NCBI GenBank assembly: GCA_965116905.1 | Contig: OZ220732.1 | Span: forward strand, 3,168,001 to 3,232,000 | DNA: 64,000 bases | Reading direction: 5' to 3' | From: Longimicrobiales bacterium | GTDB lineage: Bacteria; Gemmatimonadota; Gemmatimonadetes; Longimicrobiales; Gaopeijiaceae | Shown here: piece after piece, positions 4,472 through 40,517 of the stretch | Numbering within the stretch: the stretch's first letter is position 1 | Layout: the number at the start of each line of letters is the position of its first letter | Program-made: the position numbers and the translations under genes | Notes under the pieces: model-generated | What the model was told of the DNA's origin: nothing | The model's input: only the letters and a program-made list of their open reading frames with translations | Database searches by the model: none

Positions 4472-6001
4472 GTGGTGGATAAGCGGATAATGTTCCAGGC
4501 CCGATGGCCGGTGTGGATTCTCGTTGCTTTCGTGGCGGCTACCGCCCTTGCGCCGCCGTTGCGCGCGCAGGACCGGCTCTCCGCCTCGTTGACGCTGGAG
4601 GAGGCGCTCCGCGTGGCGCTGCGCAACAACCCGGGCGTGCAGGCGGTCCGGAACGACCTGCAGGTCGCAAACTGGAACCTGAACTCGGCCTATGGGTCCT
4701 GGCTCCCCTCGGCGTCCCTGAACTCTTCGGTCTCCTGGCAGGGAGCGGGCGAACAGCGGTTCGGGAGTATCACCGCGGACCAGCTCGGCTTTCAGGATCA
4801 ACCCTCGTTCCTGTTCAGTTCGTACAACGCCGGCTTGAACTTCTCGATGGACGGGCGCAAGCTGATGGCCCCGGGCCAGGCCCGCAGGTCCCGCGATGCC
4901 ACGCAGGCGCAGATCCGGAGTACCGAAGCGGCCCTCCGCCTGGCCGTGACCAAGGCCTACCTCGAGGTGCTCCGCCAGGGTGAGGGCCTGACGCTTGCCG
5001 AACAGGAACTCGAGCGGGCCCGGATCAACCTGCGGCTGGCCCAGGGACGCCAGGAGGTGGGGTCCGGCAACGCCATCGATGTGAGGCAGGCGGAAGTGAA
5101 CGTGGGCCGGGCGGAAGTGACCCTGATTCAGTCGCGCACCGGCGTCCAGACTTCCCGGATACGGCTGCTTCAGCAGATCGGCCTGGACCTGAACGCCGAC
5201 CCGACGCTCGCGACGACGTTTTCGGTGACTCAGCCCGAATGGACGCCCGAGGATCTCTATCAGGCGGCGATGGGAAACAACCCGGATCTCCAGGCGATGC
5301 GGGCCCAGGAGGAAGCCTCCCGCTACGACGTGAGCATCGCCCGCTCCTCCTACTTCCCCAGCGTGTCCATGTCCGCCGGCTGGAGCGGCTTCACGCGGCA
5401 GGCCAGCAGCACCGCCGGCCAGGAGGCCCAGGCGATCGCCGCCGGGGCGGCCAGGGTGCAGCAGTGCCTGACGCTGAACGACCTCGTCTCACGCCTCCCG
5501 AACCCTCCGCCGCTCCAGAATTGCAGCGTCCTGGCGACTCCCGAGTCCGCGATCGAATCCATCCGGGCCGAAAACCAGGCGTTTCCATTCAATTTCACCA
5601 GCCAGCCGCCCTCCGTCGGTCTGCAGATCTCGATCCCGATATTCCAGGGGCTTGGCCGGCAGAGGGAGCTGGAGAGCGCTCGTGCCCAGTTGAACGACAA
5701 CCGGTTCCGCATCCGCGAACAGGAGTTGGCTCTGCGGGCGGATATCGAGGCGAGCGTCGCACTGGTTCGCACCGCGTACGAAAGCGCCCTGATCGAGGAG
5801 CGCAACCAGGCGCTGGCCGACGAGCAATTGCGCCTGGCACAGGAACGATACCGCCTGGGGTTCTCCAACTTCATCGATCTGGTGGAGGCGGAGACCGTGA
5901 AAGCACGAGCCGACCGCGAGCGTATCGTGGCGATATTCATCTATCATGACGCAGTCGCCGACCTCGAGGCGGTCGTCGGCATGCCTCTAAGGAATCCATA
6001 A
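4472..6001 (+). CDS. TolC family outer-membrane efflux protein
   Basis: Signal peptide, LTLEEALRVALRNNP, second repeat AMGNNPDL, C-terminal AQERYRLG; RBS GAGGAGGGAG. Confidence 0.9.
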   Translation: MVDKRIMFQARWPVWILVAFVAATALAPPLRAQDRLSASLTLEEALRVALRNNPGVQAVRNDLQVANWNLNSAYGSWLPSASLNSSVSWQGAGEQRFGSITADQLGFQDQPSFLFSSYNAGLNFSMDGRKLMAPGQARRSRDATQAQIRSTEAALRLAVTKAYLEVLRQGEGLTLAEQELERARINLRLAQGRQEVGSGNAIDVRQAEVNVGRAEVTLIQSRTGVQTSRIRLLQQIGLDLNADPTLATTFSVTQPEWTPEDLYQAAMGNNPDLQAMRAQEEASRYDVSIARSSYFPSVSMSAGWSGFTRQASSTAGQEAQAIAAGAARVQQCLTLNDLVSRLPNPPPLQNCSVLATPESAIESIRAENQAFPFNFTSQPPSVGLQISIPIFQGLGRQRELESARAQLNDNRFRIREQELALRADIEASVALVRTAYESALIEERNQALADEQLRLAQERYRLGFSNFIDLVEAETVKARADRERIVAIFIYHDAVADLEAVVGMPLRNP

Positions 6002-6009
6002 AGAACACC

Positions 6010-7278
6010 ATGAGAACCAGAACCAAGGTGATGATCGGGACGGGGATCGCGATCCTGCTCGTCTCGGCCGCCGGGCTGAGCATGAACGGCCGGCGCCAAC
6101 AGGGAATCGAAGTCCGGATCGAAACCGTCGACAGGCGCGACCTGGTCGCGACCGTTACGGCCAGCGGCAACGTCCGCGCGCGCCGGAAGGTGGACATCAG
6201 TTCGGACATTTCCGCCCGGGTGGCGGAGCTGCTGGTGGATGAGGGCGAGGACGTGGAAGAAGGACAGGTCCTGCTGCGACTCGACCCCACGCGCTACCAG
6301 GCGGCGGTCAACCGGAGCCGGGCGAACCTCAGCCAATCCCAGGCCCAGGTGGCGCAGGCACGGGCCAACTTTGTGCGTGCGCAGAGGGAGGCGGAACGCC
6401 TGGACTCGCTGCACGCCCGCGAGCCTCTCCTGGTGAGCCGCCAGGAGGTCGATAACGCGCAGACCGACCTGGAGGTCCAGCGGTCCCTGCTCGAATCTTC
6501 GGAATTCGGGGTCAACCAGGCGCGCGCCGCGCTCGAAGAGGCAAGCGACCAGCTCGCCAAGACCATTATCACCGCGCCGATGGCGGGCCGGGTTACCCGT
6601 CTCAACGTCGAAGAGGGCGAGACGGTGATCGTGGGCACCATGAACAACCCGGGAAGCCTGGTGCTGACCGTGTCGGATCTGTCGGTGATGGAGGTCGTCC
6701 TCGAAGTGGACGAAACCGATGTGCCCGAGATCACACTGGGCGACAGCGCGACCGTCGAACTGGACGCGTTCCCGGATCTGGATTTCCCGGGGGTCGTCAC
6801 CGAGATCGGCAACAGCGCCATTCGTCCACCGTCGCAGGCTGCCAGCACGGGCCAGACGCCGACCATCGACTTCGAGGTGGTCGTGACCCTCGACAGTCCG
6901 GAGGTCGAGCTCCGCCCCGATCTGTCCGCCACCGCCGAACTGATCACCGAGACACGCGTCGACCAGCTGAGCATTCCGATCATCGCGCTTACCTTACGCG
7001 AACCGGACGACGAGGACGACGACGAGGCCGAAGGCGACGACGGCGCGGTGCCCGATCCGATTGAAGGGGTCTTTGTCGTAATGGATGGCGAGGTCGTCTT
7101 CACGCCGGTCGCGGTCGGAATCGCCGGCCAGGAGTACTTCGAGGTGATTTCCGGGTTGTCGCTCGGGGACACGGTCGTCAGCGGACCGTATCAGGTCGTC
7201 CGAACCCTGGAGGACGGAGACCAGGTGCGGGCGGACGAGAGCGACGCCGACGACGACGCGCGGGACGGACAGGGCTGA
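6010..7278 (+). CDS. Periplasmic adaptor / membrane fusion protein (MacA/HlyD-like)
   Basis: VTASGNV, VDEGEDVEEGQVLLRLD lipoyl half-motif, coiled coil, ITAPMAGRVT, VDETDV. Confidence 0.9.
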   Translation: MRTRTKVMIGTGIAILLVSAAGLSMNGRRQQGIEVRIETVDRRDLVATVTASGNVRARRKVDISSDISARVAELLVDEGEDVEEGQVLLRLDPTRYQAAVNRSRANLSQSQAQVAQARANFVRAQREAERLDSLHAREPLLVSRQEVDNAQTDLEVQRSLLESSEFGVNQARAALEEASDQLAKTIITAPMAGRVTRLNVEEGETVIVGTMNNPGSLVLTVSDLSVMEVVLEVDETDVPEITLGDSATVELDAFPDLDFPGVVTEIGNSAIRPPSQAASTGQTPTIDFEVVVTLDSPEVELRPDLSATAELITETRVDQLSIPIIALTLREPDDEDDDEAEGDDGAVPDPIEGVFVVMDGEVVFTPVAVGIAGQEYFEVISGLSLGDTVVSGPYQVVRTLEDGDQVRADESDADDDARDGQG

Positions 7279-7310
7279 CCGTGGCACCTCGCATCGGCCG
7301 AGTCGTCTGA

Positions 7311-8552
7311 ATGCATTTCCTCGAAGGCGTGCGTCTGGCGTGGGAGCAGATCCGCACCCAGAAGCTCAAGAGTTTCTTCACGCTGCTGGGTGTGATCGTG
7401 GGCGTGATGTTCCTCATCCTCGTGGTGAGCATCGTGGAGGGAACGGACCGCTACATCCGCGGCACGCTCACCGAGCGGGTCATGGGCGTGAACACGGTCC
7501 GTGTGGGCAGGATGCCCAGAGAGGCGGTCGATCCCTCGCCCGAGCAGTGGAGGGCGTGGGCCCGTGCGCCGAGATTGACCTTCGACGACCTGGAGTACCT
7601 TCGCGACAGGATTACCTTGTCGGCGACCATCGGGGCACAATCGGATGCCGGCGGGGAACTCGAGTCGGACACCGGGCTGAAGGTCGAGAACGTAAACATC
7701 GTCGGTGCGTCGGCGGAGATCTTCGAAATCCGCAACTGGAATGTGGAACGCGGCCGGGCGTACACCAGGCAGGAGGCCGATCAGGGAGCGCCCGTAGTCG
7801 TTCTGGGCAAGTCCACGGCCGAGGTCCTCTTCGAGGGTCTCGATCCGATCGGCAGGACGGTGCGGCTTCGCGGTTTCCCGTTCCGGGTCGTGGGCGTCCT
7901 GGAGGAACAGGGCTCGTTCCTGATCGTTTCCCTGGACAATCTGGCCATCGCACCCGCGCGCTCGCCGGTCCAGAGGTTCGTCAATCCGCAAGGCATCGTG
8001 GACGAGATCATCATCAAGGCCGAGGCCCCCGAACTGGTCCTGCCCATCCATCAGGAGACCGTCGAGGCCATGCGCCTGAGACGCCGGCTCAGACCCGCGG
8101 ACCTGGACAATTTCGCCGCCGAGACGACCGAGTCGTCCCTGGCCTTCTGGGACAATATCAGCCAGGTCCTGTTCCTGGCCCTGCCCGGGCTGGTCGGCAT
8201 CTCGCTTGTCGTGGGCGGGATCGTGATCATGAACATCATGCTGGTATCGGTCATGGAGAGAACGCGGGAAATCGGCATCCGCAAGGCCATTGGCGCCCGT
8301 CGCGGCGACGTGCTGGTTCAGGTCCTGATTGAAAGCGCCACCCTCTCTGCCGTCGGTGCCGCGATCGGGGTCGGTATCGGAATCGCTCTGACCGTCCTGC
8401 TGGGCGCGATGACGCCCCTACCGGCCGCCGTGGCCCCCAAGTGGATGGCCCTCGGCGTCGCCCTCGGCGTCGGCGTGGGTGTGGCTTCGGGCGTCTATCC
8501 GGCCTCTCGCGCGGCCAGGCTCGACCCCGTCGACGCGCTGAGGTACGAATGA
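7311..8552 (+). CDS. ABC transporter permease, MacB/FtsX family
   Basis: KSFFTLLGVIVGV; VGGIVIMNIMLVSVMERTREIGIRKAIGA; C-terminal LDPVDALRYE. Confidence 0.92.
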   Translation: MHFLEGVRLAWEQIRTQKLKSFFTLLGVIVGVMFLILVVSIVEGTDRYIRGTLTERVMGVNTVRVGRMPREAVDPSPEQWRAWARAPRLTFDDLEYLRDRITLSATIGAQSDAGGELESDTGLKVENVNIVGASAEIFEIRNWNVERGRAYTRQEADQGAPVVVLGKSTAEVLFEGLDPIGRTVRLRGFPFRVVGVLEEQGSFLIVSLDNLAIAPARSPVQRFVNPQGIVDEIIIKAEAPELVLPIHQETVEAMRLRRRLRPADLDNFAAETTESSLAFWDNISQVLFLALPGLVGISLVVGGIVIMNIMLVSVMERTREIGIRKAIGARRGDVLVQVLIESATLSAVGAAIGVGIGIALTVLLGAMTPLPAAVAPKWMALGVALGVGVGVASGVYPASRAARLDPVDALRYE

Positions 8553-9865
8553 CGCGGCAGGGTGGGGGCGGAGCGGGTACGCCAAGGGGAAAGCCGGCAG
8601 CGCCCGGTCACGTCCTGAGCGAGAGCGTTCGCGTAGCCTTCGACGCCCTGCGGGCCAACTGGATGCGTACGCTGCTGGCGGTGTTGGGCGTGGGGATCGG
8701 AGTCGGGGTCGTCGTCACGGTGGCTGCGATGGTGAGTGGGATCCGCAGCGAAGTCATGGAGGTTTTCGAGGCGTCCGAGCCGGGGAGTTTCACGATCATG
8801 CCCTTCGACTTCACCGACGTCCGGATTTCCGCCGACGGCTCCGGCAGACCGCCGTGGTGGGACCGGCCCGAGATCAGCAACCGTGAGATACGGAGGGTCC
8901 AGACCCTGCCCGGTGTCGCGGAAGCGACCGCCAGGTATGAATTCAGCGCCACGATGCGGTATGAGTCGGACTGGATCAGGGGCATCCAGTGGGTCGGCAA
9001 TTCGAGCGGATGGGCGACGTTCACCGGAGGGGATTTCATCGCGGGCCGGGACTTCACGCCGGCCGAGGTCGCACAGGCAAGAGGCGTAGTCGTGGTGTCG
9101 GAAGATCTGGCGGAGACGGTCTTCGGCGAGCTGGATCCGATCGGGAAGCGAGTGCGCGTAAACGCGGGCCGCAGGGCCGCGAACGAGCAATTCACCGTCG
9201 TCGGCGTTTTCAGGCCCATCGATAACCTCTTCGGGGACGTCTCGGATCACTTCGCGGTCGTGCCCTTCACTGCGGCGGACAAGCGGCTCAAGGCCCGTAC
9301 GCGGTGGAACTTCATGATGGTCCAGGTCGCCCCCAGGGGCGGCGTCGAATCGAGCGACGTCGAAGATCAGGTCGTGTCGGCGCTCCGCTCGATGCGTAGC
9401 CTCGGACCCGCCGACGAGAACAACTTCGCCATCATCCGCAGCGAACAGATCATCGACCTGTTCAACCAGTTCACGGCCATGTTCTTTATTGTGATGGTGG
9501 CGCTTTCCTCGATCGGCATGCTGGTGGGAGGGATCGGTGTGGTCGGGATCATGCTCATTTCGGTCACGGAGCGCACGCGGGAGATCGGCATCCGCAAGGC
9601 GATCGGGGCGACCGGCCGCGAGATCAAGTCGCAATTCCTGATCGAAGCGTCGCTGCTCACCGCTGCCGGCGGAGCGGCCGGGCTCCTGGTCGGATGGGGA
9701 GCCTCCGAACTGCTCGCCGCGCTGACACCGCTACCGGCGCGGATCCCGATCTGGTCGGTGTTCGCCGCGCTTTCCGTAGCTGCCCTCACCGGTATTCTCT
9801 TCGGACTGCTTCCGGCTTTGCGAGCCTCCAGGCTCGACCCCGTCGACGCCCTCAGGTACGAGTGA
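8549..9865 (+). CDS. ABC transporter permease, MacB/FtsX family (second paralog)
   Basis: ATG overlaps the previous stop (ATGA); VGGIGVVGIMLISVTERTREIGIRKAIGA; LDPVDALRYE. Confidence 0.92.
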   Translation: MTRQGGGGAGTPRGKPAAPGHVLSESVRVAFDALRANWMRTLLAVLGVGIGVGVVVTVAAMVSGIRSEVMEVFEASEPGSFTIMPFDFTDVRISADGSGRPPWWDRPEISNREIRRVQTLPGVAEATARYEFSATMRYESDWIRGIQWVGNSSGWATFTGGDFIAGRDFTPAEVAQARGVVVVSEDLAETVFGELDPIGKRVRVNAGRRAANEQFTVVGVFRPIDNLFGDVSDHFAVVPFTAADKRLKARTRWNFMMVQVAPRGGVESSDVEDQVVSALRSMRSLGPADENNFAIIRSEQIIDLFNQFTAMFFIVMVALSSIGMLVGGIGVVGIMLISVTERTREIGIRKAIGATGREIKSQFLIEASLLTAAGGAAGLLVGWGASELLAALTPLPARIPIWSVFAALSVAALTGILFGLLPALRASRLDPVDALRYE

Positions 9866-10587
9866 GCGCGCCGCTCGATGTTCTCGCCGTCATGGCGCAT
9901 CCGGATGACGCCGAGATCTTCTGTGGGGGATCGCTGATCAAGTCCGCGGACGCCGGACAACGAACCGGCGTGCTCGACCTTTCCGCCGGCGAAATGGGGT
10001 CGAGCGGGACCCGGGAGTCCCGCGCGGCCGAAGCGGCCAGGGCCGCCGAGGTCATGGGCCTTGCGGTGCGCCGCTGTGCCGGTCTCCCCGACGCCGCGCT
10101 GTGCAACGACCTGGACTCCAGGCACACGGTCGCAGGACTGATCCGCGCACTGCGGCCCCGAGTCATCGTGACGCACTGGACGCGGGGACGTCACCCGGAT
10201 CATCGTGCTGCAGCCCATCTTGCCCGGGATGCCGCCTTCCTGTCGGGGTTGCGCAACCTTCCCGTCGAGGGCGAGCCACACAGGCCGGAGAAGATCGTCC
10301 ATGCCCTTTCGTTCCGCGAGGACCCGGTCAAGCCGACCTTCGCCGTGGACATTACGGAGCAGATGGACCGCAAGATCGAGGCGTTGTCGGCCTACGGCAC
10401 ACAGTTCCGGGGCAAGAGCGGGATCGGCGAGGTGTTCCCGGCCGGTGACCGTCCTCTCTTCGAGCAGATCCGAAGCGTGCACGCCACCTACGGGTCATTG
10501 ATCCGTCGCGCCTACGCCGAAATCTACTGGACCGAAGAGACCGTCGAGACGGAAACGCTGGGAGACCTCGGAGTCAGCACCTTCTAG
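9862..10587 (+). CDS. bshB1: PIG-L family deacetylase, bacillithiol biosynthesis BshB1-like
   Basis: GTGA overlap start; AHPDDAE, DLSAGEMGSSGT, RHPDH motifs. Confidence 0.8.
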   Translation: MSAPLDVLAVMAHPDDAEIFCGGSLIKSADAGQRTGVLDLSAGEMGSSGTRESRAAEAARAAEVMGLAVRRCAGLPDAALCNDLDSRHTVAGLIRALRPRVIVTHWTRGRHPDHRAAAHLARDAAFLSGLRNLPVEGEPHRPEKIVHALSFREDPVKPTFAVDITEQMDRKIEALSAYGTQFRGKSGIGEVFPAGDRPLFEQIRSVHATYGSLIRRAYAEIYWTEETVETETLGDLGVSTF

Positions 10588-10592
10588 TGACA

Positions 10593-10625
10593 CCGGCGGG
10601 CCCCTCACGGTGAGGAGCCCGCCGG
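10593..10625. terminator. Strong GC hairpin between convergent transcription units
   Basis: CCGGCGGGC-c-CCTCA-cgg-TGAGG-a-GCCCGCCGG, 5 nt after the bshB1 stop; no U-tract. Confidence 0.6.
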
Positions 10626-10636
10626 ATACGTCGCCG

Positions 10637-10671
10637 CCACCCTGGACCGGCGTTTTCTTCCGGCCCGGTGG
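10637..10671. terminator. Imperfect hairpin right after the last peptide gene
   Basis: CCACC-ctggaCCGG...CCGGccc-GGTGG inverted repeat abutting the stop at 10673. Confidence 0.4.
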
Positions 10672-10672
10672 A

Positions 10673-10921
10673 TCACATGATCGGACCCGGTGGCGAGAAC
10701 CCGTTACAGCACCAGGGCATCCCGGGCATACACGGGATCGGCACACAGATGACCCAGGTGCCCATTCGCACCTCCCACCACTGGCCGGCGGCCGGTGCCG
10801 CGGCAGCCGAATCATATGCTCCCGTCCCGGGAGCGGAAACCAACAGCGCCGCCGTAACGCCCGCGATCTTCGCGGCTCTGGCCGCGGTGGTCGCCAGGCG
10901 CTCCATTACTTTGACTTGCAT
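10673..10921 (-). CDS. Putative secreted Cys-rich peptide precursor 3 (82 aa)
   Basis: MQVKVMERLATTAARAAKIAGVTAALLVSAPGTGAYDSAAAAPAAGQWWEVRMGTWVICVPIPCMPGMPWCCNGFSPPGPIM; GGAAGGG upstream; alternative start 10906; shares motif with its two neighbours. Confidence 0.8.
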   Translation of the reverse strand: MQVKVMERLATTAARAAKIAGVTAALLVSAPGTGAYDSAAAAPAAGQWWEVRMGTWVICVPIPCMPGMPWCCNGFSPPGPIM

Positions 10922-10968
10922 GACAATCACCCTTCCGCGGGAACAATCCCGCCGTTTATCCTCCGTGC

Positions 10969-11217
10969 TCAGAACAGGACGGGACCGCAACAGGTCGGGG
11001 CACCGCCACACGCGTAGTGGGTGCATATCTTCAGCACCCCAAACCAGACGACGAGCTTGTGGGGCCCCGACTGGGCGCTCGCTACGGTTTCAACCGGCAC
11101 GCCGCCGTCCGGTAGCGCCGGCACGACTGCTGTCAGCGCCGCGACCATACCCAACACCTTCACGCCCGCGCGTACCCCCCGCGTGCGGCCTGCAACTCTT
11201 CCGAATGTCTTTGGCAT
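10969..11217 (-). CDS. Putative secreted Cys-rich peptide precursor 2 (82 aa)
   Basis: MPKTFGRVAGRTRGVRAGVKVLGMVAALTAVVPALPDGGVPVETVASAQSGPHKLVVWFGVLKICTHYACGGAPTCCGPVLF; purine-rich AAGGGAAGAGGAA directly before the ATG. Confidence 0.8.
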   Translation of the reverse strand: MPKTFGRVAGRTRGVRAGVKVLGMVAALTAVVPALPDGGVPVETVASAQSGPHKLVVWFGVLKICTHYACGGAPTCCGPVLF

Positions 11218-11234
11218 TTCCTCTTCCCTTTTTG

Positions 11235-11471
11235 TTAGAAGTGAGGGTTCTCGTAGCAACACCAGCCACCCCAGCAAACCCCCCAACAGATGCGTAGCTT
11301 CCCCATCCCGATTACGTGTTCCCATATCTGCTCGCCAGCCGCTTCTGCCCCGGCCGCCACGGCCGGAACCTTCGCCGCCGGTGCGCCCGCGGAGAACGCG
11401 ACCGCTGCTCCCATGATCGCCGCGCGCACCAACCAAGCACGGCGCACAACACGTCTCTTGCTTCCCTTCAT
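11235..11471 (-). CDS. Putative secreted Cys-rich peptide precursor 1 (78 aa)
   Basis: MKGSKRRVVRRAWLVRAAIMGAAVAFSAGAPAAKVPAVAAGAEAAGEQIWEHVIGMGKLRICWGVCWGGWCCYENPHF; RBS AAGGAG 7 nt upstream. Confidence 0.82.
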   Translation of the reverse strand: MKGSKRRVVRRAWLVRAAIMGAAVAFSAGAPAAKVPAVAAGAEAAGEQIWEHVIGMGKLRICWGVCWGGWCCYENPHF

Positions 11472-11498
11472 CGTCGAACTCCTTCTCTTTCGAGTGTC

Positions 11499-11523
11499 AA
11501 AAGACCGAACTCAAGGATCGGTC
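11499..11523 (-). terminator. Terminator-like hairpin with U-tract between the thioredoxin-like gene and the peptide array
   Basis: Minus strand GACCGA-tccttgagt-TCGGTC-TTTT. Confidence 0.45.
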
Positions 11524-11535
11524 CGCGTCGTCAAC

Positions 11536-12099
11536 TCACCGAATTGCACCCATCACGCGTCTCTTGAGAAACCCCTCCAGCCCAAGCGAGTCCGTGGCCG
11601 AACGCCAATCCTCGGCTTCGCTCGTGGGGAGCACCGCCTCGACAATGCCAAATCTGTTCGTGACGTAGAACAGGCCCGTCTCCGCCCGTCCGAACGCTCG
11701 GACATAGTCGGATCGACTACGCACTTCGGTCCTCGCTGAAACCCGCTGGGAGCGGAGAAAGCCCGCGACCAGGTCGCGATCCGCATCCCCGCGCTCCCCC
11801 ACCGCCACCGCAACCACCTCGAGGCGGTCGCCCAGGCGATGCTGGAGCGCACGCACCGCTCTCGCGGGGTCCGTGAGCGTGCATCCCAGGCACTCCCTGG
11901 CGTCGAAAACCCACACCAGCACCGGACCGCGTCCAGAGAACCCCAGCCCAGGCAGAGCGTCACCAATGCCGGGGGCACCTCCGTCCCGCGACGAACATGC
12001 CGCGACCATGCTGGCAAAAAGGAGCATGGCGGCAGCCCGATGCGTGGCGAGGCCAGCCGCGCAGGTGCGGCCTCCGCGTACAACGACGGACCGCGTCAT
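11536..12099 (-). CDS. Thioredoxin-fold (TlpA/ResA-like) CxxC putative lipoprotein
   Basis: ATGA overlap with the upstream stop; lipobox-like MLLFASMVAAC; PVLVWVFDARECLGC followed by a helix and LEVVAVAV strand. Confidence 0.7.
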   Translation of the reverse strand: MTRSVVVRGGRTCAAGLATHRAAAMLLFASMVAACSSRDGGAPGIGDALPGLGFSGRGPVLVWVFDARECLGCTLTDPARAVRALQHRLGDRLEVVAVAVGERGDADRDLVAGFLRSQRVSARTEVRSRSDYVRAFGRAETGLFYVTNRFGIVEAVLPTSEAEDWRSATDSLGLEGFLKRRVMGAIR

Positions 12100-13247
12100 G
12101 GCTGCACACCACCCTTCCAACGCGCCACCAGCCACCGATTCGGCAGTACCGAGGCGGGATCATCGAAGTAGAACAGATCCTGCTCCACGGCCAACAGTTG
12201 CGGCATGTTGGCCGCACCCAGCAGTTGCCGCCCCTCCCGGTCGATGATCAGCACATCCCACACGGCATCCATGCCTCGCGACTGCATGGACGTCACCACC
12301 AGACTGCCGTCATCAAGAACGGACACCCCGAACACCTGAGTGAACCGGTCAAGGGCGTCCCCGCCGGCGTCGGCATCCGGGATGCTCTCCCCGACCCTGG
12401 GCAGGGTGCCCATGGGCCTCACCACCGGAAGCGGGATCTCCTCCAGTCGATCCCCTTGGCGGTTGAACTTGTAGAGGGTGTCCGACAGCGCCCACCCGGC
12501 CCAGATCGTATCCGCTTCCAGCGCAGCGAAGGCGCCCTGAAACGTGAGAGCGTAGCCGAGGGATTCCTCCGGCACCCCCATGGGAAGAAAACTGCGTTCG
12601 ATGTCCCCCGTACGGCGGTTCCAGATGTGAAGAAGACTCGGTGCCCCTTCAGCCTGCAGCGTGCCGGTCAGCAGATACCGATCTTCGCCGAGATCGTGTG
12701 CTCCCTGCACCGCGGTGATCGGCGACACGACGATATCGGGGTCCCCACCGGAAGCCGGGAAGAATGTCAGCCGGGCAAGCTGGAGGTCCGCGACCACGAT
12801 GCCGCCATCGAGGGTTCGGTGGGCCGTCAGCGGGAACAGAAACTCTCCCGGCCCCTCGCCCCTGCTACCCACAACGCGCCGCAGACGCCCATCGGTGCCG
12901 TAGACGTTGACCTGGCCCTCCATCGGCTCCGCCAACAGGAATGTGCCGTCTCCACCGAGGTTGACCATCGGCTGCACCATCATGGCCTCGTCGGTCTCTT
13001 CCAGCTCGAGTTCGGAGACCACTTCGAATGCCTCGTGGAACGCGGCCATGTCGACCAGCTCCGGAGGCGCGGCAGGATCGGGCGGTGGCGGAGGAGGATC
13101 GGTATCGGCCGTGTCGCAGGCCAACGCCGCCAGCAACAGGAGGAAACCGGGGACCTGGCCAGGGATTGTATAGGGCTCGCCCATGTATCGGGCGGCGCAA
13201 CCGGATCGGGTCTTCTGGCGGTTCCGGCGGTTCTCCGGCATCGGCAT
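12096..13247 (-). CDS. 6-bladed beta-propeller (NHL/TolB-like) putative lipoprotein
   Basis: RBS GGAGGGAG before ATG 13247 (alternative 13184); lipobox LLLLAALAC; Pro linker; VYGTDGRLRRVVGSRGEGPGEF and repeated blade ends (YKFNRQGD, IIDREGR). Confidence 0.78.
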   Translation of the reverse strand: MPMPENRRNRQKTRSGCAARYMGEPYTIPGQVPGFLLLLAALACDTADTDPPPPPPDPAAPPELVDMAAFHEAFEVVSELELEETDEAMMVQPMVNLGGDGTFLLAEPMEGQVNVYGTDGRLRRVVGSRGEGPGEFLFPLTAHRTLDGGIVVADLQLARLTFFPASGGDPDIVVSPITAVQGAHDLGEDRYLLTGTLQAEGAPSLLHIWNRRTGDIERSFLPMGVPEESLGYALTFQGAFAALEADTIWAGWALSDTLYKFNRQGDRLEEIPLPVVRPMGTLPRVGESIPDADAGGDALDRFTQVFGVSVLDDGSLVVTSMQSRGMDAVWDVLIIDREGRQLLGAANMPQLLAVEQDLFYFDDPASVLPNRWLVARWKGGVQP

Positions 13248-13395
13248 CGTGCCACTCCCTCCGTTGGTGGTGGCGGGGCGGGTTCGTTTCGGCTTGACCC
13301 CAAGATCGACCGACCAACGGGACACAGGGATAGCTGGATGGGACAATCGGACACCTGGCCCGATTCGGGAGGCGGCGATGGGGGGAAAAGGCCCC

Positions 13396-14772
13396 CTACT
13401 CCGGGATGTGTACCCCCTCCTGGCGCAGCCAGCCCTCCATGGTCGCCCGGATATCCCGCAGGCGCTCCGCGTTCGCGGCTTCGAAGCGCGCCACAATCAC
13501 GGGCTGCGTGTTCGAAGCGCGGATCAGCCCCCATCCGTCACCGAACTGCACGCGCACACCATCCACGGCAACCGTGTCGTAGCGGGCGCTGAAGTGCCGG
13601 ACGGCACGTTCCACGAGCGGGAACTTGTCTTCCTCCGCGACCTCGATCCTCAGTTCCGGCGTCACGACGTAGGCTGGCAACCCCTCGACGATCTGCGACA
13701 GCGGCCGGCCGTCGTCAGCGAGCATGACCGCGAGCCGGCACGCGGCATAGAGGGCGTCGTCGAAGCCGTAGTAGTCGTCGGCAAGGCAGATGTGTCCGGA
13801 AAGCTCCCCCGCCACCAGCGCCCCCGTCTCCTTCATCCTCTCCTTGATCAGCGAGTGCCCGGTCTTCCACATCAGGGGCTCGCCTCCGGCACGCGCGAAC
13901 TCCTCGGGAAGGACCTGCGAGCACTTCACGTCGAAGACCAGACGCTGACCGATGCCGTTGCGCAGCAGCACGTCGAGGCCGAACAGCAGAAGGAGGATGT
14001 CGCCCCGTACGATGTTCCCCCGGTCGTCCACAACCCCGATGCGGTCGGCGTCGCCGTCGAAGCCGATGCCCACGTCGGCCCGATGTTTGCGCACCTCGGT
14101 GACCAGGTCCTGGACGTACTCGTCCACGGTCGGATCCGGGTGATGATTGGGGAAGGTCCCGTCCGATTCGCAGTAGAGCGGAATCACCTCCAGGCCGATG
14201 GCTTCCAGCAGCTGTTGCGCGACCACTGAACCGGTCCCGTTCCCACAGTCGACGACAGCCCTCAGCGGACGTGAGAGCCGGAAGCGGCCGGACACATCGG
14301 CCACGTAGGCGCGGAGCGGGTTCACACGCTCGCACGACCCGGTCCCCTCGGTCAGATCCGACTCCAGAATGCGACGCCGCAGGCGCTGGATGCCGTCGCC
14401 GTGGATGGACGCCTTGCCCATGGTCATCTTGATGCCGTTGTACTCGGCCGGATTGTGGGAACCGGTGATTTGTACGGCCCCGATCGTCGCGAACTCGTAT
14501 TCGCTGAAGTAGGTGACGGGCGTCGGCACCGTGCCGAGCTGGAGGACTTCGCATCCCGCCGATCGCAGGCCCCGGACCAGAGCGGCCCGCAACCCGGGTG
14601 ACGAAGGTCGGTTGTCCTCACCCACGGCGACACGCGGCGCGGTACCCGGGAACTTCGCGCGCACCTCCGACCCGTAGGCCCTTCCCACAGCCTCCGCGAG
14701 CTCAGGGGTCAGATCGGTCCCCACGATGCCCCGAATGTCGTACTGCCGGAAGACGTGGTCCGCCAGGTGCAT
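13396..14772 (-). CDS. Phosphomannomutase/phosphoglucomutase
   Basis: FRQYDIRG, ITGSHNP, DGDADR, GELSGH, RASNT motifs. Confidence 0.95.
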   Translation of the reverse strand: MHLADHVFRQYDIRGIVGTDLTPELAEAVGRAYGSEVRAKFPGTAPRVAVGEDNRPSSPGLRAALVRGLRSAGCEVLQLGTVPTPVTYFSEYEFATIGAVQITGSHNPAEYNGIKMTMGKASIHGDGIQRLRRRILESDLTEGTGSCERVNPLRAYVADVSGRFRLSRPLRAVVDCGNGTGSVVAQQLLEAIGLEVIPLYCESDGTFPNHHPDPTVDEYVQDLVTEVRKHRADVGIGFDGDADRIGVVDDRGNIVRGDILLLLFGLDVLLRNGIGQRLVFDVKCSQVLPEEFARAGGEPLMWKTGHSLIKERMKETGALVAGELSGHICLADDYYGFDDALYAACRLAVMLADDGRPLSQIVEGLPAYVVTPELRIEVAEEDKFPLVERAVRHFSARYDTVAVDGVRVQFGDGWGLIRASNTQPVIVARFEAANAERLRDIRATMEGWLRQEGVHIPE

Positions 14773-14803
14773 CGGGGCGCGGCGTCCGCTTTCGGAACTC
14801 AGC

Positions 14804-16315
14804 TCAGGGACCCGCCGCGGCGGCCGTCCCGCCCACGGCATCCCTGAGGCCGTCGACGGAACCCGCTGCCAGATCCAGGGCCGCGCCGGGGAACAGTCCG
14901 CCCAGAATGATCAGTGCCACACCGATGACAAGGACGATGTGGGTTGCCAGGGGAGTGACGGCCGCCGCACCCGGCCCGTCCGCCGCACCCGGCTCCTTCA
15001 TCCACATGTACCAGGCGACGCGCAGGTAGTACCAGTAGGAGACGACCGTGGTGAGGACGAGGATCACCGCCAACACCCACAGCCCTGCCTCGGCGGCGCC
15101 CAGCAGCAGGTAGTACTTGGCGATGAAGCCGGCAGTCCCGGGGAAGCCGGCCAGGGACAGCAGGAAGACGGTCATCAGGAGCCCGAGCAGGGGCCGCTGC
15201 CATCCGAATCCCGTGTAGTCCTCGATCCTGGAGTTGCTCTCGCCCTGATTGCCGACGGTGACCACGATCGCGAAAGCGCCGATGGTCATGATCGTGTAGA
15301 CCAGGAGGTAGAAGAGGAGTCCCGCCGCAGCCGCGTCGTTCGCGGCAACCAGCGCCACCATCAGATAGCCGCCGTGGGCGATCGACGAGTAGGCCAGCAT
15401 GCGCTTGACGTTGGACTGCACGACGGCGATGACGTTCCCCAGGACCATCGTGACCGCGGCGATCCACCAGAGGATGGTCCACCACTGGTCGTACAGGCCG
15501 TCCAGGCCAACCAGGAATACGCGGAGAAACGCCATGAACGCGGCCGCCTTGACGGATGCAGCCATGAACGCGGTGACCGGGGTCGGCGCGCCCTCGTAGA
15601 CATCGGGCGTCCACATGTGGAATGGCACGGCGGACACCTTGAAGGCGAATCCGATCGCCAGCAGCGCCACTCCCGGGCCCATGAGGGTGCCCACGGCCGT
15701 GCCGTTGCGAACGACATCGGCGACCACTGCGATGTTGGCGCTCCCCGTCGCGCCGTACACGAGGGCAATCCCGAACAGCAGGAACCCGCTGGCGAAAGCG
15801 CCGAGCAGGAAGTACTTCAGCCCCGCCTCGGCCGACCGCCGGTCGCGGCGATTGAAGCCCGCCAGCGCATAGACGCCGATCGACATGAGCTCCAGCCCGA
15901 GGAAGATCACCATCAGGTCCCGGGCCGAAGCCATGAACATCATTCCCACGGCGGCAAACAGGATCAGGGAATAGTACTCCCCGGCCTGGAGCTTCTGCCG
16001 CGCGACGTACGGCAGGGAGACGACGATCGCGAGGCCGGCTCCGAGGAGAAAGATCCAGTTGGCGAAGAGACGGAAGCGGTCGACGGCGATCATTGCCGTG
16101 GCGCCCTCTTCGGCAACCCCGAAGTACAGCCACCCGTTTGCCAGCGCGGCAAAGGCCAGACCGGCGATCGCGAGCCAGCCGAGTTCCAGGCCCGATCCGG
16201 CCAGCTGTTTCCGGGACACCCCCGCGATCAGTATCCCCATCCCCCAGACCGAGAGCACCACCTCGGGCAGCAGTGCAAGGAGGTAGTGGGCTCCGGACGA
16301 GTAGTCGAGCAGCAC
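14804..16315 (-). CDS. nuoN: NADH-quinone oxidoreductase subunit N
   Basis: EAGLKYFLLG, FKVSAVPFHMWTPDVYEGAPTP, KRMLAYSSIAH. Confidence 0.95.
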   Translation of the reverse strand: MLLDYSSGAHYLLALLPEVVLSVWGMGILIAGVSRKQLAGSGLELGWLAIAGLAFAALANGWLYFGVAEEGATAMIAVDRFRLFANWIFLLGAGLAIVVSLPYVARQKLQAGEYYSLILFAAVGMMFMASARDLMVIFLGLELMSIGVYALAGFNRRDRRSAEAGLKYFLLGAFASGFLLFGIALVYGATGSANIAVVADVVRNGTAVGTLMGPGVALLAIGFAFKVSAVPFHMWTPDVYEGAPTPVTAFMAASVKAAAFMAFLRVFLVGLDGLYDQWWTILWWIAAVTMVLGNVIAVVQSNVKRMLAYSSIAHGGYLMVALVAANDAAAAGLLFYLLVYTIMTIGAFAIVVTVGNQGESNSRIEDYTGFGWQRPLLGLLMTVFLLSLAGFPGTAGFIAKYYLLLGAAEAGLWVLAVILVLTTVVSYWYYLRVAWYMWMKEPGAADGPGAAAVTPLATHIVLVIGVALIILGGLFPGAALDLAAGSVDGLRDAVGGTAAAAGP

Positions 16316-16318
16316 GCG

Positions 16319-17998
16319 TCAGTCCTCCCGCGCCGGAGTGGGGGAGGAAACCGGGTCCGGCGCCCCGAGCCCGGCGGGCGGAGTGTCGGCCCGGCGAAGC
16401 GGGGCGGAGGCTCCGGCTGGCGGAAGGGCGTCCGTGCCCGGCAGCACCTCGGCCCCGGGCCCGTCATCCTGTGAATTCGCGGAAGCCGTACCCACCGCCG
16501 CGCCCGCGCCCTCGACCCGCTCGAGGACCCGTTGCACGCTCGGCTCCATGCGCTCGAGGATGGGTGTGGGGTGGACGCCGATCCCGATCATGAGCGCAAC
16601 CATGGGCGCCAGGATCATGACCTCCCTCCTGGACAGATCCGGGAACTTCCGGTTCTCGGGCTTGTCCAGCTTGTTGAAGAGGATGCGCTGCACCATGGGC
16701 AGCATGTAGTACGCAGCGAATACGACGCCCGTGGCAGCCAGGATCGCTGCCAGCGCATGGGTCTCGAAGGTTCCCAGCAGGGCCAGGAATTCGCCCACGA
16801 AACCGCTGGTCCCCGGCAGACCGATCGACGCGAGCGCCGTGATTACGAAGGCCGTCGCGAAAAGCGGAGCCGCCCGCCCCACGCCGCCGAAGTCCGCGAT
16901 CAGCCGCGTGTGGCGCCGCTCGTACATCATTCCCAGCAGCAGGAACAGGGCGCCCGTCGAAATGCCGTGGCTGATCATCACCACCATGCCGCCCTGCAGG
17001 CCGTTCAGCGTCAGGGCGAAGATCCCGATCACCACGAACCCCATGTGCGCCACCGACGTGTAGGCGACCAGCTTCTTGGCGTCCGGCTGGACGGCCGCAA
17101 CCCACGCCGCGTAGATGATGCCGACCACTCCGAGCACCAGCATCACCGCCACGACCGTCGGATGTTGGGCCGCCGCGGGGAAGAGCGGCAGGAGGAATCT
17201 CATGAAGCCGTACGTGCCCATCTTCAGCAGTACCGCCGCCAGGATGACCGACCCGGGCGTCGGCGCCTCCACGTGGGCATCGGGCAGCCAGGTGTGCAGG
17301 GGGAACACGGGCACCTTGATGCCGAAGGCGAGCGCAAAGGCCGCGAAGAGCCATAGCTGCTCGCGCAGGCCGAGGTCCGCGTTGAGGAACGCTTCGTACC
17401 CGAAGGATCCTGCATTGCCCCCGAAGTAGATGTAGAGGATCGCGACCAGCATGAGGAGCGAGCCGACCGCGGTGTAGAGGAAGAACTTCACGGCGGCGTA
17501 GATCCGTCGTTCCCCGCCCCAGATGCCCACGATGAAGTACATGGGCACCAGGGTGAGCTCGAAGAAGACGTAGAAGAGGAAGATGTCGGTGGCGAGAAAC
17601 ACCCCCAGCACCCCCGTCTCCAGGAGCAGCATGAGGGCGTAGAACGCCTTGCGGCGCGTCTTGACGTACTCGAACGACCCGAGGATCGCGATCGCGCTGG
17701 TGAACGTCGTCAGCATCACCATGAAGACCGAGATGCCGTCGATGCCGAGCGCGTAGCTTACGCCCCACGACTCGATCCAGGGCGTGGAGGACTCGAGCAT
17801 GAACCCGCCGCCGCCCGGCTCGTAACCCCACCAGAGCCCGAGGCTGAGCAGGAAGACCAGCGCCGACCAGGCGAACGCACGGTGCCTGGCCCGTTCGGAT
17901 GACGAGACGGCCACATGCGCCATTCCGACCAGCGGCAGCCAGATCAGCGCGTGGAGGATCCAGTCCTCGTACCGTAGCGATGCAAGCAGATCCGTCAT
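16319..17998 (-). CDS. nuoM: NADH-quinone oxidoreductase subunit M
   Basis: GIDGIS, FYVFFE, IKVPVFPLHTWLPDAHVEAPT, LLKMGTYG. Confidence 0.95.
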   Translation of the reverse strand: MTDLLASLRYEDWILHALIWLPLVGMAHVAVSSSERARHRAFAWSALVFLLSLGLWWGYEPGGGGFMLESSTPWIESWGVSYALGIDGISVFMVMLTTFTSAIAILGSFEYVKTRRKAFYALMLLLETGVLGVFLATDIFLFYVFFELTLVPMYFIVGIWGGERRIYAAVKFFLYTAVGSLLMLVAILYIYFGGNAGSFGYEAFLNADLGLREQLWLFAAFALAFGIKVPVFPLHTWLPDAHVEAPTPGSVILAAVLLKMGTYGFMRFLLPLFPAAAQHPTVVAVMLVLGVVGIIYAAWVAAVQPDAKKLVAYTSVAHMGFVVIGIFALTLNGLQGGMVVMISHGISTGALFLLLGMMYERRHTRLIADFGGVGRAAPLFATAFVITALASIGLPGTSGFVGEFLALLGTFETHALAAILAATGVVFAAYYMLPMVQRILFNKLDKPENRKFPDLSRREVMILAPMVALMIGIGVHPTPILERMEPSVQRVLERVEGAGAAVGTASANSQDDGPGAEVLPGTDALPPAGASAPLRRADTPPAGLGAPDPVSSPTPARED

Positions 17999-18003
17999 TG
18001 GCG

Positions 18004-39488: not shown

Positions 39489-40517
39489 TCAGTAATTCAC
39501 AAGATAACGTGCCGCGGTCCCGATATCCTCAACCGAAGGAAGAAAGTAGTCCTCCAACTCGCCGCTGAACGGCACGGGAGAGTCGATCGCGGTGACGCGC
39601 AGGATCGGCCCGTCCAGCCATTCGAACGCACGTTCGTTCATGCGAATCGCGATCTCGCCCGCGATTCCGCCGGTGCGGGTGTCCTCGTGTACGATCAGCA
39701 GCTTCCCGGTCTTTTGCACGCTGGCCGCCATTGCCTCCTCGTCCAGTGGAAGGAGCGTCCTCAGGTCGATGACCTCGATGCGGATCCCGTCCTTCGCAAG
39801 CTCGGCCGCGGCTTCAAGACTGCGATGCACCATGAGGCCGTAGGTGACCACGGTGAGGTCGTCGCCCTCCAGCGCGGTGCGGGCGCTGCCCAGCGGAACC
39901 ACGTAGTCTTCCGGCGCGAGTACCTGGCGGCAATGGGGCGCGCGGTAGAGTCCCTTGTGCTCCTCGAAGATGACCGGATTGTCGTCCCTGATGGCAGCTT
40001 TGAGGAGCCCCTTGGCGTCGCGCGGGTTGGATGGGTACACGATCTTCAGGCCGGGCGTGTGGAAGAAGGCCATTTCCACGTTTTGCGAGTGGAACGGGCC
40101 ACCCCGGTTGCCGCCGCCCACCGGCCCGCGGACCACCAGCGGCATGGGCCCCGCTCCCCTGTACAGCGACGTGGCGATGTAGTTGGTGAGGACGTCGTAG
40201 GCCGGCGAGATGAAGTCCATAAACTGCATCTCCACGACCGGGCGCAGTCCCATGTGGGCGGCGCCGGCCGCCGCACCCGTAAAGCCGCCTTCCGAGATCG
40301 GCGTGTCGATCACCCTGTCCGGTCCGAAGTGTTCCAGGAACCCCCGGGTCACCTTGAATGCTCCCCCGTAGGCGCCGATGTCCTCCCCCATGAGGAAGAC
40401 CCGTTCGTCGCGCTCCATCTCCTCCCATAGCGCTTCGCCGATCGCCTCCAGGAGCGTGACGGGTTCACCGGCACGGGTCCGGGAGACGTGCGCCGGGACC
40501 TCAGTGGACATGGCCAT
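39489..40517 (-). CDS. 2-oxoacid dehydrogenase E1 beta subunit
   Basis: GEDIG, DTPISE, EMQFMDF, GPFHSQ, IDLRTL. Confidence 0.93.
   Translation of the reverse strand: MAMSTEVPAHVSRTRAGEPVTLLEAIGEALWEEMERDERVFLMGEDIGAYGGAFKVTRGFLEHFGPDRVIDTPISEGGFTGAAAGAAHMGLRPVVEMQFMDFISPAYDVLTNYIATSLYRGAGPMPLVVRGPVGGGNRGGPFHSQNVEMAFFHTPGLKIVYPSNPRDAKGLLKAAIRDDNPVIFEEHKGLYRAPHCRQVLAPEDYVVPLGSARTALEGDDLTVVTYGLMVHRSLEAAAELAKDGIRIEVIDLRTLLPLDEEAMAASVQKTGKLLIVHEDTRTGGIAGEIAIRMNERAFEWLDGPILRVTAIDSPVPFSGELEDYFLPSVEDIGTAARYLVNY

Follow-up and report, generated by a model that had tools for sequence, protein, structure and literature searches.

The stretch examined here is a 64,000-nucleotide window of a Longimicrobiales genome (contig OZ220732.1, positions 3,168,001 to 3,232,000), and plain positions below refer to this window. 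Between a gene of the PGM/PMM family upstream (pmm; Pfam PGM_PMM_I-IV) and a convergent bshB1 on the other flank (TIGR04001, above cut-off), it carries a cassette of five genes, all on the minus strand. The first encodes a 383-residue beta-propeller lipoprotein (12096–13247) with a GEGPGEF motif at residues 130–136. Its stop codon is overlapped, as ATGA, by the start of a second gene for a 187-residue lipoprotein with a TlpA/ResA-like thioredoxin fold and a CLGC motif at residues 70–73 (11536–12099; hereafter, the redoxin). Three small genes follow: peptide 1 (11235–11471, 78 residues, with a long leader, a predicted cut near AEA and an aromatic, hairpin-like stretch in the core, pattern C-x3-C-x4-CC), peptide 2 (10969–11217, 82 residues, predicted cut near ASA-Q, C-x4-C-x5-CC) and peptide 3 (10673–10921, 82 residues, with a hydrophobic leader and C-x4-C-x6-CC). 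Each is preceded by a purine-rich stretch resembling a ribosome-binding site and encodes a hydrophobic leader and exactly four cysteines; signal peptides and lipoboxes were assigned by visual inspection and with a hydropathy filter. No modifying enzyme (radical SAM, lanthipeptide, YcaO or MNIO type) is encoded in the cassette. The initial annotation had described the locus in these terms, and its account of orientation, translational coupling, small genes and absent enzymes holds.

Upstream of the propeller gene, on the same strand, lies a box (13330–13344) that likely serves a competence regulon, either as a site for an activator or as an alternative promoter, as discussed below. An xAxxxT-type hexamer resembling a -10 element, assigned by eye, sits 3' of it (13302–13307, minus strand), with similar spacing in orthologues. 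A sigma-70 scan returned one site against 0.4 expected, and that on the opposite strand. Between peptide 3 and bshB1 a long GC-rich hairpin (10589–10625) likely serves both genes as a terminator; the RNA fold of the region 10575–10672 has -57.5 kcal/mol and a z-score of -4.3, and none of 200 shuffled sequences was as stable. Rfam gave no match across 10500–13500, and none of the five proteins reaches a Pfam or NCBIfam cut-off. The closest relatives are assigned to Longimicrobiales or Gemmatimonadota.

Of 401 Gemmatimonadota genomes, 35 yielded a match to the redoxin alignment; five families are represented, and 30 of the matches have E values below 1e-5. These 30 (this genome included) and two metagenomic loci make up a set of 32 redoxin loci, and at all 32 the redoxin has an adjacent propeller gene and at least one signal-bearing Cys peptide, in a gene order that varies among loci. 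Strong propeller orthologues, of which there are 11 in other genomes among 23 loci drawn from the genome collection (some genomes recur in both sets), are in every case followed by the redoxin and by two or three peptides. Propeller–redoxin fusions with the propeller first account for three of the 120 propeller homologues listed, and in at least one of them (P0067) the leader of the redoxin has been lost. In the part of the output inspected for 20 wider regions, no recurring fourth gene was seen outside the pmm–bshB1 neighbourhood. Two of the six weak redoxin matches (E at least 2e-5) were inspected and are ordinary TlpA proteins beside a CcdA-like gene, with neither propeller nor peptide.

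The annotation had linked the propeller, the CxxC-type gene and the Cys peptides into one system and had called for a search for small open reading frames beside homologues of the lipoproteins. The association is present at all 32 redoxin loci and, together with the single propeller clade described below and the fusions, marks the three components as one conserved set (hereafter, the trio). Judged from its genomic distribution, the trio is a real, undescribed and stable module; no description of it was found in the literature searched, which covered few subscription journals and excluded supplements.

The AlphaFold2 model of the propeller (predicted local distance difference test score, pLDDT, 91.5) is six-bladed and DUF5128/NHL-like. 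The match to PF17170 (DUF5128; E 3e-4) scores 20.5 bits, below the gathering cut-off of 22.9, and some homologues do carry this family. The closest solved structures are BVU_1028 (3S9J, DUF4221; Z 21.5, root-mean-square deviation 3.6, 301 aligned residues), NHL domains and BF0058 (4RAA; Z 20.9), at 10–18% identity. The lipobox cysteine, Cys44, is retained in 27 of 30 aligned relatives. With a catalytic propeller in mind, the residues kept in at least 75% of these were inspected; they are mostly Gly, Pro, strand or turn positions, and an enzymatic role is conceivable. The genome holds about 114 propeller open reading frames. In a FastTree tree of 128 sequences (the query, 29 other trio propellers and 98 paralogues from this genome), 28 of the 29 fall into one clade with the query, apart from the 98 paralogues (support 0.988). 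The sister of this clade consists of eight paralogues from the genome itself, seven of which lie at or near Cys-peptide genes; none was found beside the one at 400 kb.

For the redoxin, the AlphaFold2 model (pLDDT 79) matches ResA, DsbE, StoA and CcmG in Foldseek, and its Atlas neighbours are AhpC-TSA/Redoxin proteins; Pfam returned no match for the copy in the window. The anchor cysteine, Cys35, is kept in at least 90% of 29 aligned members, and Cys73 is invariant (29/29), the only one of the two CLGC cysteines that is. With an E-value limit of 0.001, a profile of the family collects 630 representatives. Among the best 150 of these the full CxxC is present in 89 and absent from 61, most of which retain the second cysteine only (assessed by eye), and a rough regular expression found a cis-Pro-like pattern in 123. 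The window copy has Thr-Gly at the position where most relatives have the cis-Pro, and the closest solved structures are mostly those of reducing proteins. The earlier proposal of a dedicated oxidoreductase is upheld as far as the TlpA/ResA-like thioredoxin fold is concerned; a classical disulfide-forming role is uncertain because so many relatives lack CxxC and the window copy lacks the cis-Pro, and the closest solved structures are mostly reducing proteins. On these sequence features, a role in holding or isomerising thiols would be as plausible as oxidation.

The peptides have predicted Sec-type leaders of about 44 residues and cores of about 35. The four cysteines are the only invariant positions in the aligned cores (37/37) and are usually preceded by what appears by eye to be an aromatic, hairpin-like stretch. 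No Pfam family was found for the peptides and one chance-level match in NCBIfam; a profile of the 37 cores matched no PDB sequence, and an Atlas look-up gave a best score of 0.75. The annotation named NVEALA peptides of Bacteroidales as a loosely similar pairing; no paper on this parallel was found, and the NVEALA model PF14055 has no match in the peptides or the genome, but equally none in 14 control genomes. Among eight small signal-bearing open reading frames with the C-C-CC pattern genome-wide, seven have a propeller no more than about 1 kb away, and with a looser filter 10 of 28 are near one against 5.9% expected (the three window peptides are counted in both). Relative to six close relatives, the ratio of non-synonymous to synonymous substitution rates (dN/dS) is 0.33–0.57 for peptide leaders and cores, as compared with 0.23 for the propeller, 0.30 for the redoxin and 0.13–0.19 for bshB1 and pmm. 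Identity of the cores is 0.59–0.77 versus 0.85–0.90 for housekeeping genes, so that the cores diverge faster. By their conservation and these substitution patterns the peptides are real genes, under purifying selection with faster change.

A propeller, a CxxC protein and a small disulfide protein together echo the mau cluster. In methylamine dehydrogenase a propeller subunit is joined by a small subunit with two conserved Trp, and mauE and mauG are found in the cluster. The trio could by analogy encode a related enzyme in which the propeller is the large subunit, a Cys-rich peptide the small subunit with a Trp-derived cofactor, and the redoxin a MauD-like helper. However, the 37 cores contain no conserved Trp and are much shorter than such a subunit; neither mauE nor mauG is in the cassette, and the only MauE match of the genome is about 500 kb away. 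This candidate is largely excluded, and we give it next to no credence.

The box upstream of the propeller gene provides an indication of when the trio might be used. Its core, GTCCCATCCAGCTAT, lies within a longer GTCCC-N5-GCYAT-N6-GCCC-like element and is invariant or nearly so across nine aligned orthologous upstream regions. It occurs with at most one mismatch in 11/11 orthologous loci and is present in all four loci of a second genus. If a single mismatch is tolerated, 20 of 25 congeneric genomes contain it, at 2–25 copies, against 0–1 for the reversed pattern. A matrix was built from 17 cassette boxes of other genomes only, avoiding circularity, and its null distribution has a 99th percentile of 6.6. 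All six wider loci of this genus score at least 15.8, two of them having been in the training set. At 16 bits or above there are 30 sites in this genome and none in the reversed genome. The sites precede the short ssb (32.6), the minor-pilin/pilM-Q operon (26.2), comEA-pilT-pilC (25.5), yraN (22.4), recA (20.8), pilB (17.9), a ComEC-like metallo-beta-lactamase gene (17.7) and comM (17.3), with comEC at 13.6. In all, nine competence-type genes have the box directly upstream, and dprA would be reached through its operon, from a 20.8-bit site two genes upstream.

A LexA-type, SOS-responsive element was also considered and rejected: none of seven SOS genes (two copies each of lexA and uvrA, with recN, dinB and imuB) has the box, and their scores are -0.3 or less. 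In other genomes of family f1 the box precedes 4/9 comEA loci as compared with 0/20 control loci, and, with a refined matrix, 3/3 genes for short single-stranded DNA-binding proteins as compared with 0/4 for long ones. From this distribution of sites it is very probable that the box co-regulates the cassette with competence genes. Because the cassette stands behind the same box as the DNA-uptake genes, its peptides are likely made during DNA uptake. No description of such a competence regulon, or of such secreted peptides, in Gemmatimonadota was found, within limited coverage of subscription journals, and the available text of PMC10469786 contains no mention of propeller, bacteriocin or competence.

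Other peptide genes stand behind the same element. A 24.8-bit box precedes a cluster at G000:C1 3,897,600–3,902,720 (L203), with a similar cluster behind the box in L161, that comprises a stand-alone C39 peptidase, four Cys peptides whose leaders end in Gly, an ATP-binding cassette (ABC) transporter and a possible fragment of TlpA. From its gene content this cluster is apparently bacteriocin-like and undescribed. Since the box is common to DNA-uptake genes and not to SOS genes, both the cassette and the C39 cluster likely belong to a natural-competence regulon. At L173, L177 and L184 an unrelated type of peptide/propeller cassette follows the box; its peptides have a C..C..C-(F/W-rich)-C hairpin-like core and are accompanied by a distant propeller and by a small one-Cys protein that is unrelated according to hhalign.

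When 40 exact copies of the box from eight genomes were sorted by downstream gene, nine lay before ssb, pilins, pilB or comEA and four before peptide clusters. Eight preceded DUF222-HNH genes, six Rpn/YhgA-like genes and two HigBA, with three before small coiled-coil proteins, two before nothing and one before an insertion sequence; five were apparently in coding sequence. The DUF222-HNH and Rpn/YhgA-like transposase genes with many boxes were recorded at L148–L155, L157, L165, L167, L168, L170 and L175 and at G000:C1 605,505 and 2,037,995, as if mobile genes timed their expression to competence through the box. A second box-like site in the window, at 39607 on the plus strand (17 bits), has no clear gene downstream on that strand.

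We tentatively favour, with somewhat less than even confidence, a reading in which the cassette encodes competence-coupled exported peptides that are handled by the propeller–thioredoxin pair and act against neighbouring cells. Speaking for it are the bacteriocins or killing systems of competence regulons elsewhere, the need of four-Cys bacteroidetocins for a thiol oxidoreductase gene, the two unrelated peptide cluster types behind the same box and the faster divergence of the cores. Induction of competence would lead to transcription of the operon, and the peptides would be exported by Sec and cut after AxA. The two lipoproteins would then act jointly: Cys73 would engage the thiols of a peptide, the propeller would bind its core, and the peptides would attack neighbouring cells during DNA uptake by the producer. 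As a route across the outer membrane, the co-regulated type IV pilus secretin can only be guessed at. Within this reading, the part we consider likely is that the lipoproteins form one functional unit, by analogy with the thioredoxin–NHL pair of NHLRC2/SOQ1, in which the invariant second cysteine would engage peptide thiols as the propeller binds the core. A bacteriocin-like nature of the peptides, comparable to that of CibAB in the pneumococcal ComX regulon, with a propeller that also protects the producer, may be the case but falls a little short of an even chance. A more far-reaching version appears doubtful: that the box defines a Gemmatimonadota natural-competence regulon driving several unrelated secreted-peptide arsenals, with the trio supplying a new class of Sec-exported toxins, disulfide-knotted hairpins that a split thioredoxin–NHL machine would mature and neutralise.

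Several observations weigh against the favoured reading. With regard to the box, no site was found within 500 bp of comF or of a second DprA-family gene; it was absent from 10 of the 11 cassettes that lie elsewhere or belong to other families, and from the other peptide–propeller islands of this genome. Outside family f1 it precedes 0/9 comEA and 0/14 ssb loci, and no replacement motif was recognised there by eye, so the competence link is shown for family f1 only. The copies before DUF222-HNH, Rpn/YhgA and HigBA genes, and those apparently in coding sequence, point in the same direction. With regard to the peptides, no positive selection was seen on the cores (dN/dS below 1 against the six close relatives), and the net charge of the 37 aligned cores has a median of 0 and a range of -7 to +4, so they are not cationic. 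Genes for a dedicated transporter, a C39 peptidase or membrane immunity are missing from the cassette; a Sec leader takes the peptides to the periplasm only; CxxC is missing from part of the redoxin family; and the locus keeps its synteny throughout a genus, an unusual trait in a toxin island.

The neutral cores would also suit peptides that act as competence or density pheromones, with the propeller as their binding protein and positive feedback as for competence-stimulating peptide (CSP) in streptococci. The box held in common with competence genes, the strain-to-strain variation of the cores, which is reminiscent of pherotypes, and the separate tree branch of peptide-linked propellers would all fit. 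Neither a kinase nor a response regulator or transporter accompanies the trio, however, and the site is empty in some congeners that possess the box system. In genomes G330 and G379 pmm abuts bshB1 with neither cassette nor box, and in G344 (L283) the cassette genes are gone from between pmm and bshB1 and an intact box (38.7 bits) is left as an orphan promoter; genomes G271 and G363 carry other DNA at the site. We regard a pheromone role as unlikely.

Similarly unlikely, in our estimate, is a purely periplasmic role, in which the propeller–redoxin pair would have the peptides as its small subunits or clients, in an envelope or pilus accessory complex for DNA uptake. Sec-type leaders and the want of an exporter agree with such an arrangement, as do the lipoprotein nature of both partners, their occasional fusion, the purifying selection and the one-Cys redoxins, which would suit a lasting mixed disulfide. 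On the other hand, the propeller model is complete without a peptide, and one to three divergent paralogous cores per locus, with little kept besides the cysteines, are a poor fit to a fixed subunit.

Compared with these, a role of the peptides in buffering metals or redox state, with a ResA/TlpA-type reductase keeping them reduced, is improbable. The invariance of the four cysteines alone and the mostly reducing nature of the nearest solved redoxin structures would be expected, but the box ties the cassette to DNA-uptake genes, no metal transport or regulator gene recurs among the neighbours (as read from protein starts, with no dedicated scan), and the aromatic hairpin-like cores point to protein or membrane contact. 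We place still less weight on peptides and propeller being host-directed factors of a sponge symbiont. This idea draws on a sponge-metagenome run that contains 0.81 of the words of the stretch, on the many propeller genes and on the NHL-like fold; against it, the trio is also found in four further Gemmatimonadota families, and a box of competence type speaks for a bacterial setting. The host-directed and metal-binding roles entertained in the initial annotation are weakened because of this wider occurrence and the box.

In X1, the only RNA-labelled run in which the stretch is present, depth is flat and DNA-like at 12–15x over 6000–18000, which resembles DNA carry-over; run X4 contains almost none of the stretch. 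The X1 contigs have a gap at about 10992–11279, spanning peptide 2 as well as the end of peptide 1; a contig of run X2 also stops at 10995. These breaks possibly stem from strain variation in the peptides.

Further peptide loci were seen elsewhere in the genome. A second, non-orthologous island with no competence box, at G000:C1 364,700–371,800 (L045:7754–14646), holds four propellers, a helix-turn-helix open reading frame, two six-Cys signal-bearing peptides and a CPQC thioredoxin-like protein for which the hhalign comparison with the redoxin family gave only 9%; at 729 kb and 922 kb, too, peptides of this kind stand before propellers. Signal-bearing frames of 65–73 residues with about eight cysteines (CC...YCC..CC..C...C) occur at G000:C1 714,311, 755,595, 950,825 and 2,797,771, those at 755 kb and 950 kb adjoining sigma/anti-sigma-like genes. 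At L047:4073–7054 (G000:C1 ~722–725 kb), a lanthipeptide-like cluster, named by eye, comprises kinase and LanC-like pieces, a 47-residue precursor and an ABC transporter, and adjoins a propeller and two Cys-rich peptides.

The trio constitutes a sizeable potential source of small peptides of the disulfide type, unaccompanied by the modifying enzymes on which cluster-mining tools key, and the box is the first concrete hint as to when it is used. The box also predicts a whole competence regulon (comEA, comEC, comM, pilB, pilM-Q, short ssb and recA) in a mostly uncultured phylum, which might be useful for rendering such bacteria transformable. If the propeller–redoxin pair does process the peptides, it would offer a simple bacterial model for thioredoxin–NHL proteins such as NHLRC2, whose substrate is unknown; and should the peptides prove to be toxins, they would be the first natural peptide client of an NHLRC2/SOQ1-type thioredoxin–propeller pair.

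The annotation had left room for a match to a characterised system, and the trio lacks defining features of the bacteroidetocins, of NHLRC2/SOQ1 and of mau. According to the available text on bacteroidetocins, these peptides have four cysteines and require a thiol oxidoreductase gene for full activity (PMC6671954), and they target BamA (PMC8546649, likewise in the portion available). Their clusters resemble the trio in placing a four-Cys peptide beside a thiol-oxidoreductase-type gene, with no obvious immunity gene, and differ in their 15-residue double-glycine leaders, C39/ABC exporter and protein with five transmembrane segments; the word propeller does not occur in the accessible part of the paper (PMC6671954). 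The trio has Sec-type leaders of about 44 residues, C-C-CC spacing, a propeller and no exporter.

The mau cluster, in which roles for MauD and MauE are described in the available part of one report (10.64898/2026.03.05.709764), likewise has a helper with CxxC and a thioredoxin fold, which serves an exported protein that is small and rich in disulfides; the trio differs in its much shorter cores and in lacking conserved Trp, mauE and mauG. With BVU_1028 and BF0058, six-bladed propeller lipoproteins of Bacteroides whose Z-scores tie with those of NHL domains, the window propeller shares 10–13% identity, and their entry titles give no function.

Competence-coupled killing offers a parallel in regulation. 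In the pneumococcal ComX regulon cibABC stands together with comEA, comEC, ssbB and recA (PMC6560143), and in Vibrio cholerae the type VI secretion system is co-induced with competence (PMC6237807), as given in the accessible portions of both papers. Here too, secreted-peptide genes have a cis-element in common with comEA, comEC, ssb, recA and pilus genes, but in another phylum, with another box, disulfide-type peptides and lipoprotein partners, and with killing as a candidate activity.

In architecture the trio is like a split NHLRC2 or SOQ1; neither is among the top structural matches listed. As described in the parts available (PMC6107167; 10.1101/2021.03.16.435614), both combine a thioredoxin-like domain with a six-bladed NHL propeller, and fusions occur in the trio family too. 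Theirs is a single chain with an N-terminal thioredoxin domain and a CC(I/V)NC motif, whereas the trio has two lipoproteins, or fusions with the propeller first, and CLGC. The NHLRC2 study, in its accessible text, records no conserved neighbours in seven bacterial genomes (PMC6107167); in the trio a peptide gene is always adjacent.

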